A stretch of 59,803 bases of DNA from a virus. Lineage: Duplodnaviria; Caudoviricetes. Position numbers and translations under genes: made by a program. Below, in pieces: positions 1 to 59,803 of the stretch (position 1 is its first letter; each line of letters starts with the position of its first letter). The DNA lies in the IMG/VR virus record IMGVR_UViG_3300033993_001438, positions 1 through 59,803 of that record. One strand, written 5' to 3'. The notes beneath the pieces are model-generated. The model ran no database searches and had not been told where the DNA came from. It saw only the letters and a program-made list of their open reading frames with translations.

Positions 1-132
1 CTTTTTGTACAGCGGCGACACAAACTGGTTCGGGTCTTTGACGCGAACCGTGTCTCCCTCAATCGGCTCCCACTCATCGGCATAACCAGCGGATGCAGGA
101 GACGGCTCGTTGGCGTCATTTGGTGTAGTCAT
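1..132 (-). CDS. Cassette-borne hypothetical protein, 3' end outside the window (MTTPNDANEPSPASAGYADEWEP...)
   Basis: ATG at 132 preceded by GAGGAGAAAAC inside the attC loop; the frame stays open to the window edge. Confidence 0.6.
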   Translation of the reverse strand, partial: MTTPNDANEPSPASAGYADEWEPIEGDTVRVKDPNQFVSPLYKK

Positions 133-169
133 GTTTTCTCCTCGCCGCTCCTGATCCGTAGCGTTCGCC
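80..169 (+). repeat. attC-like recombination site 1
   Basis: GCATAAC-CAGCG-GATGCAG-GAG-A-CGGC...GCCG-CTC-CTG-ATC-CGTAGC-GTTCGCC: R''/L''/L'/R' spacing with two extrahelical bases, as in canonical attC. Confidence 0.85.
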
Positions 170-171
170 AA

Positions 172-450
172 CTAGCCAACAACCACGCCGGTGTATTTTT
201 CCGTCTCCGCGAGCAGTTCTTCGGCTCTCTTGACAGCCAAGTGCCTGTCCTCAAACCACTGCTCAAAAGACTCGGCGTTGTCTTGTCCGCGACCCTTCTT
301 TGGGAAGCCGTCAGACAAGACGCCGTCCAACATCGACGCGACCGACCGCAGTTGCGCCCGCAGGCTGCAAATCGTTTCAGTCATTTCTGCTTCGGCATGT
401 GTCATCGCTTTCTCCTTTGTTGTTTCTGCCACGCCAGTGATTTTACTCAT
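172..450 (-). CDS. Cassette-borne hypothetical protein
   Basis: 92-aa ORF filling the interval between attC1 and attC2; stop codon next to R'. Confidence 0.7.
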   Translation of the reverse strand: MSKITGVAETTKEKAMTHAEAEMTETICSLRAQLRSVASMLDGVLSDGFPKKGRGQDNAESFEQWFEDRHLAVKRAEELLAETEKYTGVVVG

Positions 451-518
451 GCCTTGTCAAGCGTAAACCTTGGCGAACCAACGGATGCAGCGGACAGCGT
501 TGCATCGTCTTTAGGCAT
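447..518 (-). CDS. attC-encoded leader peptide MPKDDATLSAASVGSPRFTLDKA
   Basis: AAAGGA RBS and ATG in the attC2 loop; its TGA overlaps the ATG of 172..450 (ATGA). Confidence 0.5.
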   Translation of the reverse strand: MPKDDATLSAASVGSPRFTLDKA

Positions 519-560
519 GGTGAGTCCTTTCATCGCTGCCGCTGATCCTGCGTGTTCTCA
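472..560 (+). repeat. attC-like recombination site 2
   Basis: GGCGAAC-CAACG-GATGCAG-CGG-A-CAGCG...CGCTG-CCG-CTG-ATC-CTGCGT-GTTCTCA. TTGGCGAAC is the exact complement of GTTCGCCAA at 163-171. Confidence 0.88.
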
Positions 561-812
561 GCCCAGCCGTTCCAGCAACCCGCGAAGGGTTGCAATGTCT
601 TTCCTGCCAACGTCTCCGATCTGACTGTTGTCCTCGCACCATTGCAGCCAAGACAAGTCTCTCTCAATCGCCTCCCGCTCCTCGTCGGTGAGCCGCAGCC
701 GTTCGATCTCCCTCGCGGCGTCATGGCACACCCAGTAGCGTTCCTCATCATCTGTGCCGATGAGGTTCGCTGGTGCCAGCCGCAGTCGGTCGCAGATGTC
801 CACCTTGCTCAT
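558..812 (-). CDS. Hypothetical protein, EIERLR/LTDEERE/RGLLER family
   Basis: ATG 812 after AGGAG in the half-attC; paralogous to 1130..1381. Confidence 0.75.
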   Translation of the reverse strand: MSKVDICDRLRLAPANLIGTDDEERYWVCHDAAREIERLRLTDEEREAIERDLSWLQWCEDNSQIGDVGRKDIATLRGLLERLG

Positions 813-816
813 GTTT

Positions 817-843
817 CGCCGCTCCTGATCCTTCACGTTATGC
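817..843 (+). repeat. Half attC site (L'-R' arm only)
   Basis: CGCCGCTCCTGATCC-TTCAC-GTTATGC, nearly identical to the right arm of attC1; no left arm upstream. Confidence 0.7.
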
Positions 844-1059
844 CCCAGCATCCGCCGCCGCGTCGATCAGCGCTTTGCCGAGCAGCCTTGCCAACTCCGG
901 AGACACCGTGAAACGAATGTTTCCAAAATGCTCCTTGCTTGCAGCGTCCGGCGTGCAGACCCCAACGCAGCCCAGCCCGTCGCCGTCAGGGCCAACCTCA
1001 ATGCAAGCTCCGCAGGCGTCGTCGTAGATTCGGCGGCTAAGTTCCACGCTGTATGCCAT
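838..1059 (-). CDS. Cassette-borne hypothetical protein (MAYSVELSRRIYDD...)
   Basis: AGGAGAAAGGA RBS before ATG 1059; the TAA stop lies within the GTTA of R'. Confidence 0.75.
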   Translation of the reverse strand: MAYSVELSRRIYDDACGACIEVGPDGDGLGCVGVCTPDAASKEHFGNIRFTVSPELARLLGKALIDAAADAGA

Positions 1060-1086
1060 TCCTTTCTCCTTTTGTGAATCCACCCG

Positions 1087-1134
1087 GCATAACCACGCGA
1101 TGCTGCGGACGAGCCGCTGATCGCATCGCTCACT
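1087..1134 (+). repeat. Short degenerate attC-like site
   Basis: GCATAAC-CACGC-GATGCTG-CGG-A-CGAG-CCG-CTG-ATC-GCATC-GCT (GCT in place of GTT). GGCATAAC complements GTTATGCC at 837-844. Confidence 0.65.
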
Positions 1135-1381
1135 TCGTCCGCTCCAGCAGCCCCCGCACCACTCGCTCGGTGAAGTCCACGCAACGGTACGATGCGTCCT
1201 CCGCGACACCATGCAGAACATCCCGCTCCTCGTCGGTGAGTCGCACCGTTTCGCGCCCATCTACTGCACCGTTTCGCAGCCGCTCAATCTCATTTGCGGC
1301 CCGCTCGCAAAGCGTGTCAACGACCTTGCTGGAGTAAGCCCGGTCGCGCAGCTGTTGGACGATGTCTGTCACAGATCGCAC
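1130..1381 (-). CDS. Hypothetical protein, paralog of 558..812
   Basis: Shared AANEIERLR, RLTDEER and RGLLER motifs. Confidence 0.75.
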   Translation of the reverse strand: MRSVTDIVQQLRDRAYSSKVVDTLCERAANEIERLRNGAVDGRETVRLTDEERDVLHGVAEDASYRCVDFTERVVRGLLERTK

Positions 1382-1578
1382 TCCAGCAGGCCGGCAGGGA
1401 TCATGTTGCGGATCGTCTCTGCGAGGTCCATCGCTTCGCTGTCGGCGTCACTGTGCTTGACAAGAGATCGGCACTTGTTGTCGATGTCTGACAAGGCCCG
1501 CAACGCCTGATGGCCGGACAGCGCAGCATGAAACTCATAGTCGTCGTCAGGCAGCGTGAAGTTTAGCGAGGCGCGCAT
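1369..1578 (-). CDS. Small phage hypothetical protein (MRASLNFTLPDDDYEF)
   Basis: Resembles a common small phage protein N-terminus; overlaps the next gene. Confidence 0.7.
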   Translation of the reverse strand: MRASLNFTLPDDDYEFHAALSGHQALRALSDIDNKCRSLVKHSDADSEAMDLAETIRNMIPAGLLECDL

Positions 1579-1646
1579 GGTGGACTCCAAAGGTTAACGA
1601 GAAGCAAAAGCGCGGCCAGCACCGCGTAGAAGTAAAGGTCCGGCAT
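1563..1646 (-). CDS. 27-aa hydrophobic peptide
   Basis: MPDLYFYAVLAALLLLVNLWSPPCAPR fills the gap between neighbouring genes. Confidence 0.35.
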   Translation of the reverse strand: MPDLYFYAVLAALLLLVNLWSPPCAPR

Positions 1647-1660
1647 TGTGTCGATGTAAT

Positions 1661-1927
1661 TCATGGCCAGTTGGGGTACAGCAGTACGCCGCACCGCGTC
1701 TCAGGGTCAAGCACCTCCACCGCGGCGGTGCGTGGGAATGTCGCACTTACAAGGGCGCAGATTTCGTCATACGGCAGGGCGTCCAGGACCTCCGCATGCT
1801 CATCCGCCCAGGTCTGCACGGTCGCGTGATCGCACGCAAACCCGGGGTCCTCGTCGCCGCAGTTGAGCCACAGCCGCATGGAAAACCGCGGCTGATGGAT
1901 CATTACCATGTTCTCCCTAACTACCAT
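1661..1927 (-). CDS. Hypothetical protein
   Basis: GGAGG RBS upstream of the ATG; co-oriented with the operon. Confidence 0.6.
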   Translation of the reverse strand: MVVRENMVMIHQPRFSMRLWLNCGDEDPGFACDHATVQTWADEHAEVLDALPYDEICALVSATFPRTAAVEVLDPETRCGVLLYPNWP

Positions 1928-1986
1928 GATGGACCTCCTTGGTGTCCTTGCAGTAGTAACCATCCCCGGGGACCTCTCCCCAGGAA

Positions 1987-2649
1987 TCAACCAGGCTCTT
2001 TCGGAGCCTTGCGACCTCTGCCTCTAGGGCTCGGATCACACTTGTCATCTCCGCCGCCCGCCTCTCCGAACGCTCCAGACGCTCCGTCAACCCACTGCAG
2101 GCCGGAGGTGGAGAACAGCAGCTCGCAGAGCTGAGAGGCGGGCCGGAGGAACTTGGAAGGGGCGACGAGGGTGGGCATGGCGAACCCTCGCATGCTGTCA
2201 AAGACGACACGCTCCTGCCAAGATCCGTCGCGGTCGATTGCGCAAAGCCACACCCAGTGACCCGTGACCTGCGAGATGTAGACCCAGGCGAACGGCTGCT
2301 CGCCTCGCCTGAGGCCGGTGACGTCATCGACAAAGACGGTGTCATAGGGGAAGTCTTCCGGTCCGGTGAACTCAAGGTTGCGGAGCTTTATTTCGATGGC
2401 CACCGCCGCCACTGCGTCCGGGGTTGGACAGAAGTCCGCTCTTGGATTGTGGTCCGGGAGGACGAGCTTGACCCCGTTTGCGACAGCGCGACCGTGGGTC
2501 GTCCTCATCTGGGCCACCCACTTGCCCTCGGCCTGGTGGGCTTTGCCCAGGACTGCCAGGAACTTCTCCTTGGACCATCCTTTCGATGTTGATTTGCCGG
2601 ACGCGGGCTGCCCTCCTGGCGATTTCCGCGGGCCCCATTTCTTTGGCAT
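1987..2649 (-). CDS. PD-(D/E)XK nuclease-like protein
   Basis: AEGKW...PDAVAAVAIEIK motif pattern. Confidence 0.55.
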   Translation of the reverse strand: MPKKWGPRKSPGGQPASGKSTSKGWSKEKFLAVLGKAHQAEGKWVAQMRTTHGRAVANGVKLVLPDHNPRADFCPTPDAVAAVAIEIKLRNLEFTGPEDFPYDTVFVDDVTGLRRGEQPFAWVYISQVTGHWVWLCAIDRDGSWQERVVFDSMRGFAMPTLVAPSKFLRPASQLCELLFSTSGLQWVDGASGAFGEAGGGDDKCDPSPRGRGRKAPKEPG

Positions 2650-3007
2650 CGATGTCCTCCCAAAGCTCCGTGCTAAGCGGCTCTGCCCTGCGGATGTCCG
2701 ATGACCTCCGCTCGCAATCCGCAACCTGGTCCACCGTGACCCTGAACGCACGGGCGATGTCAGCGTGGGTACGATCCGGATAGCCAAGACTCAGGACGAT
2801 CAGCCGGTCCCGGCTCGGCAGGCGATGCCTCCGCAGCAGGGCGACCATCTTCTTGCCGACGTCCGGGCTCAGATCTAGCGACTCCCACACCTTGCGGGCC
2901 GGCTCCCGGTTGACGAACACCCGCCTCCAGATGTCCGGCGCCACCGCGAGGGGCACGCCCAAAGAACCAATCCTTAACTCTTGTCCACAGCGAACGCTTA
3001 GGCTCAT
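2372..3007 (-). CDS. HTH-containing protein
   Basis: THADIARAFRVTVDQV HTH-like segment; AGGAGGA RBS; C-terminal part overlaps the next gene. Confidence 0.5.
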   Translation of the reverse strand: MSLSVRCGQELRIGSLGVPLAVAPDIWRRVFVNREPARKVWESLDLSPDVGKKMVALLRRHRLPSRDRLIVLSLGYPDRTHADIARAFRVTVDQVADCERRSSDIRRAEPLSTELWEDIDAKEMGPAEIARRAARVRQINIERMVQGEVPGSPGQSPPGRGQVGGPDEDDPRSRCRKRGQARPPGPQSKSGLLSNPGRSGGGGHRNKAPQP

Positions 3008-4698: not shown

Positions 4699-5034
4699 CT
4701 AGAACGCAGACTCCTCCTGCCGCTCGCGGGCACCACCCAGCAGCGTCAGCTCGCGGACCTGAAGGCCCACGTGCGTCCGCTTCTGGCCATCCTTCTCGTA
4801 CGTGCGGCTCTTGAGAGAGCCGATCACACAGATCGTCTTGCCGCGGGTCAGGTACTCAGACACCTGCCCAGGCCGCCAGTAGTCGCAGTCCAGGAACAAG
4901 ACCTCGCCGTCCTTGCGGCCGTTGACCGCAATGGCGAACGAGGCAACCTCGTTCTCACCGACCATCTTGACCTCGGCATCGCGCGTGAGATTGCCGACAA
5001 ACGTGCAGTTGTTGACTCCGCTAGCCATCGTCAT
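4699..5034 (-). CDS. ssb: Single-stranded DNA-binding protein
   Basis: VGNLTRDAE, FAIAVN, YLTRG, GSLKSRTYEKDGQKR; acidic tail ending in F. Confidence 0.93.
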   Translation of the reverse strand: MTMASGVNNCTFVGNLTRDAEVKMVGENEVASFAIAVNGRKDGEVLFLDCDYWRPGQVSEYLTRGKTICVIGSLKSRTYEKDGQKRTHVGLQVRELTLLGGARERQEESAF

Positions 5035-5678
5035 GCCTCCTGGAAACGTGTGGAAACCAACTCACTCATCCGGTCGAACACGGCGGGATCGCACACACGC
5101 TCGCTGACGCGGAGCTGGATGCGGTCCAGGGTCTTCTGGGCGTCGGCCATGGTCTTGGCCTTGTCGATCTCACCCTTCGCCAGGGCTTCGATCTGGAGGC
5201 TCTTGTCCGTCCGCTGCGGGACCTTGGCCTTTGCCTGCGGCATCGCCTTCTGGGCGTCGTCGTCGTCCTCAGCCCACGCCCCAACGAGGCCCAGCAGCAG
5301 GTACTTCTTGGCGTAGGTGTAGGCAGAGCCCAAGGACTGCATGTCCTTGCGCTCGTTGCCCTCCTTGTCCACGCCCAGGTACACCGGGCACAGGCTGGTG
5401 ACGAACTCGCCGCTGCTGTGCCGCAGCGTGCCAACAGCAATCCACTCGCCGCCGACACGCGTCAGGCAGACCTGCGGCAGAGGGAAGCCGTTCTGGTTGA
5501 GAGGCTCACGCAGGGCCTCGCAGATGTCGCTGTATCGCATGTAGCGATACTTGCCGAACTTGTTGTCGCCGCCCTTCTCAACGGCAGGGAACTTGGCCTG
5601 AGCCTTTACCAGCGCTCCGACCAGCGTCATCGTCTCCGGGCTCGTCGTCAGGCCCGGCAATCCATGGTCAACAATCAT
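5031..5678 (-). CDS. ERF-family ssDNA annealing protein
   Basis: ALVKAQ..., N.FGKYRY, LRHSSGE, QSLGSAYTYAKKY, EDDDD motifs. Confidence 0.85.
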   Translation of the reverse strand: MIVDHGLPGLTTSPETMTLVGALVKAQAKFPAVEKGGDNKFGKYRYMRYSDICEALREPLNQNGFPLPQVCLTRVGGEWIAVGTLRHSSGEFVTSLCPVYLGVDKEGNERKDMQSLGSAYTYAKKYLLLGLVGAWAEDDDDAQKAMPQAKAKVPQRTDKSLQIEALAKGEIDKAKTMADAQKTLDRIQLRVSERVCDPAVFDRMSELVSTRFQEA

Positions 5679-6550
5679 CGCCTTCCTCCTGTGAAAAACG
5701 CTGGGAACTCCAGCTCCAACTCCTCGTCGTCCTCAGGCGTCCTGTACTCGCCCAGCTGTCGTCGCAGCCGGATCTGGTCCAGGGTCACCCTGATCTGTTC
5801 GCGAGCCTCCTCAACCAGCTCGTCTGGGAGGGTCACCACTCGCACGCTGTGCGGCTTATGCGTCTGGGCGAAGATGAACCGCAGCTGGTGGTAGTCCCAA
5901 CCGCACGCCACCGCCGCATCCACGTACCAGGCGGCTTGCCAGAGGTAGCCGTAGAGGTCGCATGACCTCCACAGTTCCTTCCAGTCAGAGGATGTGGTCT
6001 TGTAGTCCCAGAGAAAGCCTTCGGTCACGCCGTCGGCCAACGCCTTGCGCTTGTGGCCGTGCGAGTCCTCATGCCTAAACGTGGCCTGCATGTCCTTGGT
6101 GGCCTCAAGGATCTCGCGGGCACGCTTGTTCTTCAGCGTGTTCTCAACGATCCGGTTGAGCTTCCACCAGTCGCCGGCCGACACTTCCAGGCGGCCCTGG
6201 TTCTGCTCCTTCCACTCCGTGTACGCCTTGCCGCGGCGGGCCCCGTTCGACAGGACCTCCTCCGGCGGGATCACGTAGCGGTCTTCCAGCCGAACGCCGG
6301 CCACCACCATGGGAATGGCACGGTCCACCATCGATCCAAAGTCTGTCCCGGCGTTGCCGCTGAACAGACGTTCCCCGTTGTCCAGCGCCTCCTGGGCGAG
6401 CCCGCCGCCCTTGAAGACGGAGTGGGCAAACGAACGCGTCAGGTACCCGTCATCCACCCGGTAGGCCGCGTCGATGGCGTCCTGGTCCAGGAGTTTGCCG
6501 TTTGTGGAATCCAGGCAACCTGGGGTGTATGATCCAAAAGCGACGGTCAT
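5675..6550 (-). CDS. PD-(D/E)XK exonuclease (ExoVIII/DUF3799-like)
   Basis: KALADG...WDYKTT, YGYLWQAAWY; adjacent to ERF and SSB. Confidence 0.8.
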   Translation of the reverse strand: MTVAFGSYTPGCLDSTNGKLLDQDAIDAAYRVDDGYLTRSFAHSVFKGGGLAQEALDNGERLFSGNAGTDFGSMVDRAIPMVVAGVRLEDRYVIPPEEVLSNGARRGKAYTEWKEQNQGRLEVSAGDWWKLNRIVENTLKNKRAREILEATKDMQATFRHEDSHGHKRKALADGVTEGFLWDYKTTSSDWKELWRSCDLYGYLWQAAWYVDAAVACGWDYHQLRFIFAQTHKPHSVRVVTLPDELVEEAREQIRVTLDQIRLRRQLGEYRTPEDDEELELEFPAFFTGGRR

Positions 6551-6739: not shown

Positions 6740-7558
6740 ATGCTAATCTCCGAGTACGCTTCCCGCTACGCCAACAGAATTGGGGCTTCCCCCGGCTATT
6801 TGGAGCAACTTTTGGTTTTCACCAGGCGTCTGCCCTGGCACGTGGAGGAGGTCACCACCGACATGGTGGACTCCTATCTCACAGATGCCCTCACCCATTT
6901 GAGGGCCCAGACAGTCGCCAATCACCGCAGGCTCCTCACAACCCTCATGCGTGATGCAGCCCGCAACGGACTGAACACGTGTATAGCACGCGGATTCCGA
7001 CGCGTCAAGGTGCCCAGGCCGGTTCCCAGAGCGCTGTCCCGGGACGAGATCCGTGCGGCGGTGGAAGCTGCTCGCAAGACCAAGGGTCATTTCCGTGACC
7101 TCCGCAAGTCCGACTTTCTTGTCGCCTGGTTCCTGACCGCCTACTGCACCGGCTTGCGGGCCGGCGACCTCATGGAAGCGCGGTGGGGTCAGGTTCGCGG
7201 CCGAAGAATGTATGTGCGTCAATCCAAGACGTCAACACCCCACGTGACGGTTTTTACCGACGAGGCTTTGGAGGCGTGCAAGGCCCTTCCACGCAAGCAG
7301 CGGATCTTCGGAGACTTCGCTGCGATGAACACCATCCAGCAGTGGGTCAAGGCCTGCATGCTGTCAGCCGGCCTGGACGCTAGCACCAAGTTTCTGCGGC
7401 GCTCGGCCGCGACTTATGCCAAGGTCCAGGGCAAGAACCCCAAGCACGTTCTCGGACATTTGACCGACGGGCTCGCGGAGCGGCACTACGTCGATCAGCT
7501 TCTATATGAGGAAGAGGCCGGCATCAACGGCGAGCCGCTGCCGTCAGTGCTGGGCTAG
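6740..7558 (+). CDS. Tyrosine recombinase/integrase
   Basis: TGLRAGDL (R), QSKT (K), KFLRRSAAT (K at the His position), LGH, RHY; lone plus-strand gene between two modules. Confidence 0.88.
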   Translation: MLISEYASRYANRIGASPGYLEQLLVFTRRLPWHVEEVTTDMVDSYLTDALTHLRAQTVANHRRLLTTLMRDAARNGLNTCIARGFRRVKVPRPVPRALSRDEIRAAVEAARKTKGHFRDLRKSDFLVAWFLTAYCTGLRAGDLMEARWGQVRGRRMYVRQSKTSTPHVTVFTDEALEACKALPRKQRIFGDFAAMNTIQQWVKACMLSAGLDASTKFLRRSAATYAKVQGKNPKHVLGHLTDGLAERHYVDQLLYEEEAGINGEPLPSVLG

Positions 7559-59694: not shown

Positions 59695-59774
59695 GTGATA
59701 TGCAGCACTCGGTAACGCCGTGTCTCGCGTCACGCGGCCGTGCGGCGCGGAATCGGCGGGGTGATATGCAGCAC
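59695..59774. repeat. 14-bp direct repeat x2
   Basis: GTGATATGCAGCAC at 59695-59708 and 59761-59774. Confidence 0.7.
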
Positions 59775-59803
59775 GGGGGACGCTATCGAGAACCGCATAC
59801 TCA

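Follow-up and report, generated by a model that had tools for sequence, protein, structure and literature searches.

Positions 1-1137 of the window, by which we mean the whole stretch of 59,803 nucleotides analysed, very probably form part of an integrase-less cluster of attC sites (CALIN) in a phage. The cluster extends past the contig ends and probably depends on the integron integrase (IntI) of the host. The phage, of about 60 kb, is uncultured, and its host is probably a Cyanobium-like picocyanobacterium, an assignment made because of the similarity of the sites and one genome; when isolate phages were searched by blastn and tblastn with the module, the portal protein and the initial 6 kb as queries, no match was returned. 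A further proposal, to which we give about even chances, is that the attC sites are bifunctional, with one strand serving as the folded substrate of host IntI and as the mRNA ribosome-binding site, start and leader, and that a guild of picocyanobacterial phages (~60 to ~205 kb) shares the cassette pool.

The attC-like sites and cassette genes of the window

Sites were scored with two covariance models. R1 was built from phage modules only, and its training set included sites 1 and 2 of the window. R2 was built from 19 host attCs adjoining intI genes; because these attCs had been selected with R1, the reciprocal test is not fully independent. The two complete attC-like sites, the half site and the degenerate short site described in the earlier note were all found to be present. 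The features of the array are listed below.

1-132, minus strand: cassette gene D, 44 codons, truncated by the contig end; site 1 contains the start codon and the ~18 codons at the beginning of the gene
77-172, minus strand: attC-like site 1, complete (R1 86.8 bits; R2 43.7 bits, E 4e-9; DNA fold; sequence)
172-450, minus strand: cassette gene C, 92 aa, no known family, flanked by a 9-bp inverted repeat
447-518, minus strand: leader mini-ORF, 23 codons, starting in the loop of site 2
469-563, minus strand: attC-like site 2, complete (R1 75 bits; R2 32.9 bits, E 2.6e-6; alignment; fold)
558-812, minus strand: cassette gene B, 84 aa, starting at the ATG of half site 3
805-846, minus strand: half site 3 (sequence; repeats; R1 match at 771-846 of 10 bits, E 1.7, not significant)
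838-1056, minus strand: cassette gene A (72 aa), which has a ribosome-binding site of its own and complementary ends on both sides
1084-1137, minus strand: site 4, short (~55 nt), degenerate, attC-like (R1 15.9 bits, E 0.022)
1130-1381, minus strand: small gene directly upstream of site 4, from the LTDEER...GLLER cassette family
59695-59803, no strand assigned: far side of the array after wrap-around (comparison with locus L001)

The first 1.15 kb is the sole location in the window of both arm motifs (at most one mismatch), the left-arm repeat family occurring at 78-104, 470-496 and 1085-1111 and the right-arm family at 142-165, 533-556 and 816-839. All sites are co-oriented, with single small genes in between; as the earlier note had it, these genes are inverted relative to attC, all being on the minus strand, a statement that can be sharpened by placing the gene start within attC. 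On the + strand, the left arm of site 1 is composed of AAC (84-86), a 4-nt spacer, GGAT (91-94), an extra G (95), CAGGAG (96-101), an extra A (102) and CGGC (103-106), followed by the loop; the right arm is composed of GCCG (144-147), CTCCTG (148-153), ATCC (154-157), a 5-nt spacer and GTT (163-165). This gives a stem of 14 bp with two bulged bases, and the DNA fold was likewise a two-bulge hairpin; the minus strand carries GGAG, an ATG (132-130) and the leader of the gene at 1-132. The geometry proposed earlier was attC-like and stands as such, except that in this parse the extra bases number two instead of one and the spacers measure 4 and 5 nt instead of 5 and 6.

Site 2 has its AAC at 476-478 and its GTT at 554-556 (+ strand), and its stem shows compensatory changes relative to site 1 (GAG/CTC to CGG/CCG). 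Half site 3, which on the + strand amounts to a right arm plus GTT (837-839), is unable to fold because, of the mRNA-sense strand, it has retained no more than AAC, spacer, 5' arm and ATG; the same fusion was found in locus L058. Site 4 has lost the AAC at its mRNA-sense 5' end. Intact counterparts of site 4 are present in L001 (3488-3542), in L058 and in a Cyanobium integron (L107, 13779-13833); counterparts scored 26.9 and 35.4 bits with R1, and R2 gave the one in L001 29.2 bits. With R2, sites 1 and 2 were the only clear matches in the window, the next having an E of 0.31, and sites 3 and 4 were not detected at E<=1. An Rfam scan of positions 1-3000 (E<=10) yielded chance-level matches only and no attC family. 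Folding-energy z-scores against shuffles were -1.2 for site 1, -2.1 for site 2 and 0.1 for site 4, with half site 3 unfolded; taken alone, folding energy is not exceptional and is weak evidence. The hallmarks of attC are there, namely outer AAC/GTT cores, a second inverted pair behind unpaired spacers, and extrahelical bases on one arm; AAC and GTT are both present in sites 1 and 2, while site 3 has only one core and site 4 has lost one.

A CALIN is defined by two or more attC sites of one orientation that lie near each other and have no intI in the vicinity; in the window, two complete and two decayed sites lie within 1.1 kb on one strand with no IntI. This agrees with the earlier note, which had seen no IntI; a TIGR02249 search of the whole 59.8-kb record gave no match at E<=1, and none of five large related viral genomes (0/5) had an IntI by the same model. 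No attI was evident in the window, and the arrangement of a complete integron, with intI and attI adjoining the array, was not found.

A tyrosine recombinase of non-IntI type at 6740-7558 (+) had been overlooked in the earlier note, and conceivably this phage enzyme, not host IntI, recombines the sites. With PF00589 the protein scores 31 bits; in NCBIfam it comes closest to an Xer/integron-integrase-type model, a weak match of 27 bits. Its gene is 5.6 kb away from the array, and no other large gene of that region is on the + strand. The protein is also kept at 79-96% identity in seven of eight helicase-defined relatives, the eighth locus stopping short of the region. However, the protein is not an IntI: it has no TIGR02249 match (E<=1), and BLASTP showed no similarity between it and the IntI of Cyanobium. 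In two complete phage genomes of ~204 kb that bear the module, PF00589 was not matched at E<=0.001, and an IntI is absent from all five large genomes. The enzyme is more simply read as serving lysogeny or dimer resolution, and we hold its action on the sites to be quite improbable.

The contig ends ~10 nt short of the outermost AAC/GTT present in L001, and direct repeats (GTGATATGCAGCAC) were found at 59695-59708 and 59761-59774. Reading the contig as a closed circle, with a TGA formed directly across the ends, was rejected, for L001 has ~1.08 kb more array there. The ortholog of gene D in L001 measures 99 aa; where the window differs from L001 at gene D, the contig ends lie at the same place, which makes an assembly break, not a recombination event, the probable cause.

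The module family in viral genomes and Cyanobium integrons

In IMG/VR, 92 stretches matched the exact pattern of the ~95-nt module, the arrays being co-oriented without exception, and R1 gave 327 matches at E<=1e-3 in 100 viral loci (1.0 Mb in total). Strand mixing occurred in 0/52 loci with more than one nhmmer match, the median spacing was 400 nt, and each of five large viral genomes had a single module cluster. In an alignment of 75 modules, the 14-bp stem is 99% paired with compensatory changes at six pairs, and AAC and GTT are invariant (75/75). The alignment contains 27 G:U cells, for which pairing exists on the mRNA-sense strand only, indicating that this is the strand under selection. 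Two single-base bulges, 6 bp apart, lie on the 3' arm of that strand at positions identical in phage modules and host attCs, and the 5-nt and 4-nt spacers between the stem and AAC/GTT are non-complementary. The consensus of the attC outer core site is RYYYAAC. Next to GTT, departures from the purine-rich consensus are frequent (GTTCTCA, GTTCTGT), an observation that we counted against the attC reading; the core-site consensus is written GTTRRRY in a report on phage attCs (PMC9892861).

The possibility that the modules are chance inverted repeats or duplicated 5' ends of paralogs, with no role in recombination, would accord with the modest folding z-scores and with the fact that the loop codes for a similar peptide in different genes. 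Yet nucleotide-level conservation extends over phages with helicases of just 65% identity, the stem changes are compensatory with P/L codon swaps that preserve pairing, the proteins downstream of the modules fall into 21 unrelated clusters, and the sites were found by a model built from host attCs. Already contradicted by stem covariation, detection with the host model and complementary ends, such an origin is scarcely credible. The candidate explanation that the repeat is a conserved N-terminal peptide only was likewise rejected, on nucleotide-level conservation and stem covariation.

The strict module pattern had a single match in genome_contigs, a Cyanobium contig carrying an IntI (L107, 10020-10991) of 457 bits (cut-off 265). 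R1 identified six co-oriented sites on this contig, on the strand opposite to intI, four of them at E<1e-6 and two weak (E 0.13 and 1.1). A second host genome has 11 co-oriented R1 sites within 16 kb after intI, with the site directly 3' of an opposite-strand ORF in at least seven sites checked; in three further host arrays, 7/7 sites were on the strand opposite to intI, and R1 had no match in two other intI regions. When 151 genomes of the GTDB family of the Cyanobium genome were surveyed, 19 had an R1 match, and an IntI match was found in all 19 of these versus 27 of the 132 others (Fisher p 6.6e-12). The host attCs have the same geometry as the phage modules, being 96.5% paired with compensatory changes at 12/15 stem pairs; they carry no ORF, yet match the modules in bulges, spacers and AAC/GTT. 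The assignment of the window sites to the same structural family as the attCs beside integron-integrase genes in the GTDB family of the Cyanobium genome is supported.

Three consecutive phage-type cassettes were observed in the Cyanobium integron, the two longest BLAST matches between Cyanobium and viral cassettes spanning 359 nt (92% identity) and 196 nt (88%). At the junction, homology to the attC of another host genome begins exactly at AAC, and the bases preceding this AAC are the end of a phage-type cassette. Kinship with host integron attCs, phage-type cassettes within a host integron and junctions at AAC (on the other strand, G/TT) all favour the attC-cassette interpretation advanced in the earlier note, which is largely supported; the involvement of host IntI keeps the standing of a probable one.

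Cassette ends, crossovers and gene starts within the sites

Gene C is flanked by 9 complementary bp, GTTCGCCAA (163-171) and TTGGCGAAC (470-478), and gene A by 8 bp, GTTATGCC (837-844) and GGCATAAC (1086-1093). Both pairs follow the cassette rule by which the bases after the G/TT point of GTT are complementary to R'' of the next site, and the complementary ends announced in the earlier note can thus be read directly in the window. The unique GTT..AAC intervals of the viral arrays numbered 59, with 39 of at most 700 nt and 20 longer. At least seven complementary end bases were present in 30 of the 39 short intervals, with 22 distinct end words, and in 35/59 of all intervals, as compared with 15.6% when cassette ends were paired at random; the two flanks of the same module reached 7 bp in just 21/102. 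The same rule is obeyed in one host array. Of the intervals longer than 700 nt, 13/20 had only 3-4 complementary bases, and these were counted against the attC reading.

On the mRNA-sense (folded) strand, the module displays a ribosome-binding site, an ATG and a leader of 18-19 codons. An in-frame start inside the site was found in every unique module-headed ORF (104/104); 97 of these ORFs are complete, with a median for the set of 104 aa, and six of the 97 are mini-ORFs of at most 35 aa. In the window, the TGA of the mini-ORF at 447-518 overlaps the ATG of gene C (ATGA). The stop codon of the upstream gene lies 6-22 nt before the stem in 98/99 contexts, and in the commonest module variant the sole AGGAG sits in the stem arm. 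Gene B is a member of an abundant cassette family with the C-terminus LTDEERE...GLLER; no attC was detected by the R1 scan before the gene at 1130-1381. When 27 cassette proteins were compared with Pfam and PHROGs, only DUF551 exceeded the curated cut-off, further matches being sub-threshold zinc-ribbon-like ones and three unnamed PHROGs. The strand carrying the embedded gene start is the equivalent of the recombinogenic bottom strand of attC, and the site would double as a translation-initiation region and leader.

Variants internal to the modules (spacer, loop) showed no clear linkage to either flanking gene in a test of few pairs (small excesses of similar size, from 32 and 13 informative pairs). 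Variants unlinked to the flanks are not predicted by a strict single crossover point, but are predicted by homologous exchange or gene conversion. At half site 3 the junction is internal to the site, immediately following the ATG, and this was also counted against the attC reading. The expectation that gene-content breakpoints would fall at G/TT failed in this instance, and within the phage arrays the breakpoints could not be pinned to that point. Homologous exchange between near-identical modules may also be occurring.

Taken further, such exchange leads to an alternative in which the modules derive from or resemble attCs but are now non-substrates; they would act as portable translation-initiation hairpins, whose near-identity enables ERF-type annealing to swap genes by homologous recombination, in parallel to the PeSLs of T4-type phages. 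This would accommodate the ORF headed by each module with its in-frame start, the spacing of the upstream stop, the AGGAG confined to the stem arm in the commonest variant, internal variants not tied to one flank, and half site 3 as a module-internal junction. Genes for ERF, SSB and a PDDEXK nuclease lie 4-6 kb off (window 4699-6550), and a crossover anywhere in identical modules would likewise keep the end repeats of each gene. What it leaves unexplained are the family-specific complementary ends beside AAC/GTT (the 22 words), the match in bulge, spacer and AAC/GTT to host attCs that have no ORF, and the joining of phage-type cassettes to non-homologous host attCs at AAC beside intI; the modules, moreover, have neither a sigma-70-like promoter nor a terminator and so are not PeSLs. 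We consider that the sites are unlikely to have ceased to be integrase substrates in this way.

Proposed mechanism and comparison with known systems

A cassette read in gene direction (window minus strand) begins with the C of AAC, a 5-nt spacer, the 5' stem arm and the ATG-bearing loop, continues with the 3' stem arm containing two bulged bases, a 4-nt spacer and GTT plus 4-7 bases, and ends with the ORF body and stop, the reverse complement of those 4-7 bases, and AA. The mRNA-sense strand corresponds to the attC bottom strand and is the one on which the hairpin is conserved and whose 3' arm has the bulges. Host IntI is proposed to act on the folded strand in infection or lysogeny, bringing about cassette excision and insertion, such that phages and occasionally a host integron would share a pool of ~100-aa accessory genes. 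Homologous recombination between near-identical modules may add to the shuffling, the phage having ERF, SSB and nuclease genes in the region given above.

Integrons are viewed mainly as bacterial, and attC clusters in phages have until now figured in the literature as rare oddities. In the present case one attC family connects the chromosomal integrons of an abundant group of aquatic cyanobacteria with dozens of phages, all of them uncultured. If the host integrase acts on the sites, phages would shuffle accessory genes by a host recombination system, and genes would move from phage arrays to host arrays and back. A gene start encoded within a recombination site is a new design, one that bears on the expression of cassettes facing away from the integron promoter and on how new cassettes arise. 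Were the bifunctional attC confirmed, each cassette would be a self-sufficient plug-in translation unit, and the shared pool would be accessed via host IntI with host integrons occasionally capturing phage genes. The combination of defined sites, a defined integrase and visible population-level polymorphism makes a clean experiment possible.

PeSLs consist of a promoter and a terminator stem-loop and are exchanged by homologous recombination. They are known as regulatory cassettes of T4-type phages (PMC2839356). Like the modules, they are short stem-loops repeated on either side of small accessory ORFs in hypervariable parts of phage genomes, where a role in gene shuffling is assumed for them. 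The modules differ in having neither promoter nor terminator and in showing attC geometry and complementary cassette ends. A scan of positions 1-1600 revealed no terminator-like site in any module and one promoter-like site, at 467-440 (-), outside the modules, so that the sigma-70-type promoter and terminator expected in each PeSL repeat were not found.

Sedentary chromosomal integrons of the Treponema type have intI co-oriented with the cassettes, and their intI clade includes Synechococcus sp. (PMC3607928). The host arrays studied here are alike in that intI is on the strand of the cassette genes, an attC follows each gene and the complementary-ends rule is obeyed; the window departs from this type, with no intI, no evident attI and cassettes read from the opposite strand. 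As for translation, ORF-11/ORF-18 in attI1 of class 1 integrons drives or couples translation of the adjoining cassette (PMC8876359), and like the modules provides, within an integron recombination site, a short ORF together with its ATG and a ribosome-binding site. ORF-11/ORF-18, however, is described there as located in attI, on the top strand, and as serving the first cassette only (PMC8876359), whereas here every attC has the element, located on its bottom strand, and the cassette protein is usually an in-frame extension of it.

The statement in the earlier note that attC sites are known in phages is correct, phage-borne attC clusters having already been published. The portion of that work considered here reports 17 CALINs in phage genomes without intI, and phage attCs that recombined with IntI1 in 5/6 tested (Qi et al., 2023; PMC9892861). 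These CALINs, like the window, comprise at least two attC sites plus cassettes in a genome without intI. The same portion describes neither a cyanobacterial host nor an attC-embedded gene start. In contrast to those clusters, one attC family is found here in ~90 uncultured viral contigs of very different sizes, can be connected with chromosomal integrons in a single host family, and is associated with genes on the bottom strand that start within attC.

The cassette array at the left end of the window

The window spans an entire IMG/VR virus record of 59,803 bp and is that of a phage: a P22/SU10-type portal, ERF, SSB and an SF2 helicase are among its genes, almost all of which are carried on the minus strand. 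At the left end a repeated element of about 95 nt lies between small genes, as listed below.

1-132, minus strand: small cassette gene (D)
77-172, minus strand: complete site 1
172-450, minus strand: small cassette gene (C)
469-563, minus strand: complete site 2
558-812, minus strand: small cassette gene (B)
805-846, minus strand: half site 3
838-1056, minus strand: small cassette gene (A)
1084-1137, minus strand: short site 4
1130-1381, minus strand: small gene

Direct reading of the sequence bore out the site coordinates and complementary end pairs reported in the earlier note, and a scan of the whole window confined both arm motifs (at most one mismatch) to the first 1.15 kb. On the minus (mRNA-sense) strand, the complete unit is ordered as follows.

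Part 1: stop codon of the upstream gene, 4-7 variable bases, AAC and a 5-nt spacer
Part 2: 14-nt arm (most often GGATCAGGAGCGGC) and a loop of about 38 nt containing ATG and about 13 codons
Part 3: 16-nt arm pairing with the first apart from two bulged bases, separated by 6 bp
Part 4: 4-nt spacer, GTT and 4-7 variable bases, through which the reading frame continues

When 75 different units were aligned, neither AAC nor GTT varied and the stem pairing reached 99%, with compensatory changes at six stem pairs; in one variant the inner stem CGGC/GCCG was replaced by CATCGC/GCGATG. The hairpin is evidently under selection on the mRNA-sense strand, since the 27 G:U cells in the stem would be C-A mismatches on the opposite strand. 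Thermodynamic folding z-scores by themselves were unimpressive.

Both contig ends (window positions 1 and 59803) lie inside the array. A related viral contig, L001, has flanks 95–98% identical to the window and holds about 1.08 kb of additional array (L001 3951-5030) where the window ends, comprising the remainder of gene D and three further cassettes. As judged from these ends and this extra stretch, the window carries only part of the full array, and because so similar a contig is longer at this place the record is probably not quite complete, despite a CheckV rating of 100%. Window cassettes B and C are absent from L001; such heterogeneity would be expected of a cassette array that varies within a phage population. 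Direct repeats of GTGATATGCAGCAC (two copies, 59695-59708 and 59761-59774, 66 nt apart, non-coding) adjoin the far end of the array after wrap-around and could be candidate protein-binding sites, operator or attI-like. The sole sigma-70-like promoter match within 1-1600 (467-440, minus strand; TTTACG, 16 nt, TAAAAT; 9/12) lies just past site 2, upstream of an internal ATG at 405 in gene 172-450.

The unit was present at the corresponding place in eight relatives identified by their helicase, and a strict module pattern retrieved 92 stretches from IMG/VR, on contigs ranging from fragments of a few kb up to about 205 kb. The arrays were co-oriented (no mixed-strand locus among 52 multi-hit viral loci; median spacing 400 nt), and each of five large viral genomes contained exactly one cluster, of 2–14 sites.

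Relationship to host integrons and the probable recombinase

The strict pattern gave a single match among 185,579 species genomes, a 15.8-kb Cyanobium contig encoding a protein that scored 457 bits against the integron-integrase (IntI) model (cut-off 265). A covariance model trained on phage units only found six sites on this contig, four with E<1e-6 and two weak (E 0.13 and 1.1), all downstream of intI and on the strand opposite to it. In a second genome of the family the model found 11 co-oriented sites within 16 kb following intI, at least seven of which, when checked, directly followed an ORF on the other strand; this is a textbook integron array. All seven matches in three further intI regions had that orientation, and two other intI regions yielded no match. 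Positive genomes numbered 19 of the 151 sampled in the family; an IntI match occurred in all 19, and in 27 of the 132 negative genomes (Fisher p 6.6e-12). The host attCs are unlike the phage units in sequence, share their geometry and bulge positions, and show strong covariation. A reciprocal model, built from only 19 host attCs that had themselves been located with the phage-trained model, recovered site 1 (43.7 bits) and site 2 (32.9 bits), with no other match in the window below E 0.3; elsewhere its matches numbered five in L001 and three in another module-bearing viral contig, L007. On this evidence, the phage sites are very probably integron attCs.

In these host integrons, intI and the cassettes share one orientation. 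Two such host loci are L107 (G001:C39, the Cyanobium contig) and L121 (G088:C6:52500-70500); the arrays include a repeated cassette with two ~100-aa ORFs (copies at L121 12553-13163 and 17234-17844) that is toxin-antitoxin-like by arrangement only.

The bases past G|TT in an integron are part of the next cassette and hence match the R'' in the attC which that cassette itself carries. This rule is followed by the viral arrays. At least seven complementary end bases were found in 35 of 59 unique GTT..AAC intervals (15.6% for random pairing), and in 30 of the 39 intervals of up to 700 nt, which had 22 different end words; among the 20 longer intervals, five reached seven bases and 13 had only 3–4. 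By contrast with the interval ends, the flanks on either side of one module were complementary to that degree in just 21 of 102 modules.

Three phage-type cassettes stand in a row in the Cyanobium array, bordered on either side by ordinary host cassettes; their longest BLAST alignments with viral cassettes show 92% identity over 359 nt and 88% over 196 nt. Next comes a host-type attC. From AAC, the canonical attC crossover, onward into the next cassette, it shares about 90% identity with attCs of another genome, and the bases preceding that AAC belong to the end of the phage-type cassette. Since there is no homology between the bodies of the two attC kinds, the junction is best explained by site-specific exchange at AAC.

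As the earlier note had stated, no IntI is encoded in the window, a profile search having found none. A gene that it did not mention is the following.

6740-7558, plus strand: diverged tyrosine recombinase of 272 aa (PF00589, 31 bits), only weakly Xer-like and distinct from IntI

It is the only large plus-strand gene in the 5.5–8.8 kb region, is 79–96% identical in seven related contigs, and may serve as an integrase in lysogeny. IntI is absent from all five large module-bearing viral genomes, and no tyrosine recombinase was detected at E<=0.001 in two complete genomes, each about 204 kb. The simplest reading is a host enzyme acting in trans, because IntI is missing from the window and these viral genomes and scores above cut-off in 37 of the 151 genomes sampled from the presumed host family, that of Cyanobium, in which chromosomal integrons are common. 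Such an IntI would recombine the phage sites.

Certain features do not fit the action of an integrase alone. Half site 3 retains only AAC, spacer, 5' arm and ATG, and gene 558-812 begins at that ATG; it is a junction inside a site, and an old one, since the identical fusion occurs in viral contig L058. Site 4 is without its AAC, and intact counterparts are present elsewhere. Variants within the module showed no clear linkage to either neighbouring gene. Homologous exchange or gene conversion between near-identical modules probably acts too. A recombination module at 4699-6550 (minus strand; SSB, ERF and a PDDEXK nuclease of the DUF3799 family), immediately upstream of the helicase and array, might promote homologous exchange among the 95-nt units.

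Gene orientation, the embedded start and known systems

The inverted gene orientation described in the earlier note was upheld: phage array genes lie on the bottom strand and start inside attC, whereas host array genes occupy the top strand and run toward their attC. In the three phage-type cassettes of Cyanobium the gene likewise begins inside attC on the bottom strand. All 104 unique module-headed ORFs had an in-frame start within the loop; 97 were complete (median 104 aa), including six mini-ORFs of at most 35 aa, and the 91 longer ones formed 21 clusters after leader removal. A large protein family (~80–110 aa; C-terminus ...LTDEERE...(R)GLLER(xx)), represented by window genes 558-812 and 1130-1381 and at many viral loci, accounts for one cluster of 55 of these 91 ORFs and matched no Pfam family.

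If the crossover is at the 5' AAC of the mRNA-sense strand, each cassette brings an initiation region of its own. The sole AGGAG of the commonest variant is in the stem arm; in sites 1 and 2 of the window, GGAG or AGGA lies in the loop, 5–7 nt ahead of the ATG. A ribosome terminating at the upstream stop codon could open the hairpin, since that codon lies 6–22 nt 5' of the stem in 98 of 99 contexts, and translational coupling would result. At site 2 the leader is a mini-ORF of 23 codons, ending in a TGA that overlaps the ATG with which gene 172-450 starts.

The phage cassette array is a real finding. Phage-borne attC clusters lacking an integrase (CALINs) as such are already known: PMC9892861 describes 17 CALINs in a set of 21 phages carrying integron components, and IntI1 recombined five of six tested phage attC sites. 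Co-orientation of intI with the cassettes is likewise known in a clade including Synechococcus (PMC3607928). Literature searches that covered integrons in cyanophages, attC in Synechococcus, and attC start codons and the bottom strand turned up no account of such arrays in cyanophages, nor of a gene beginning within attC. For the attC-embedded gene start, the nearest precedent is ORF-11 in attI1 (PMC8876359).
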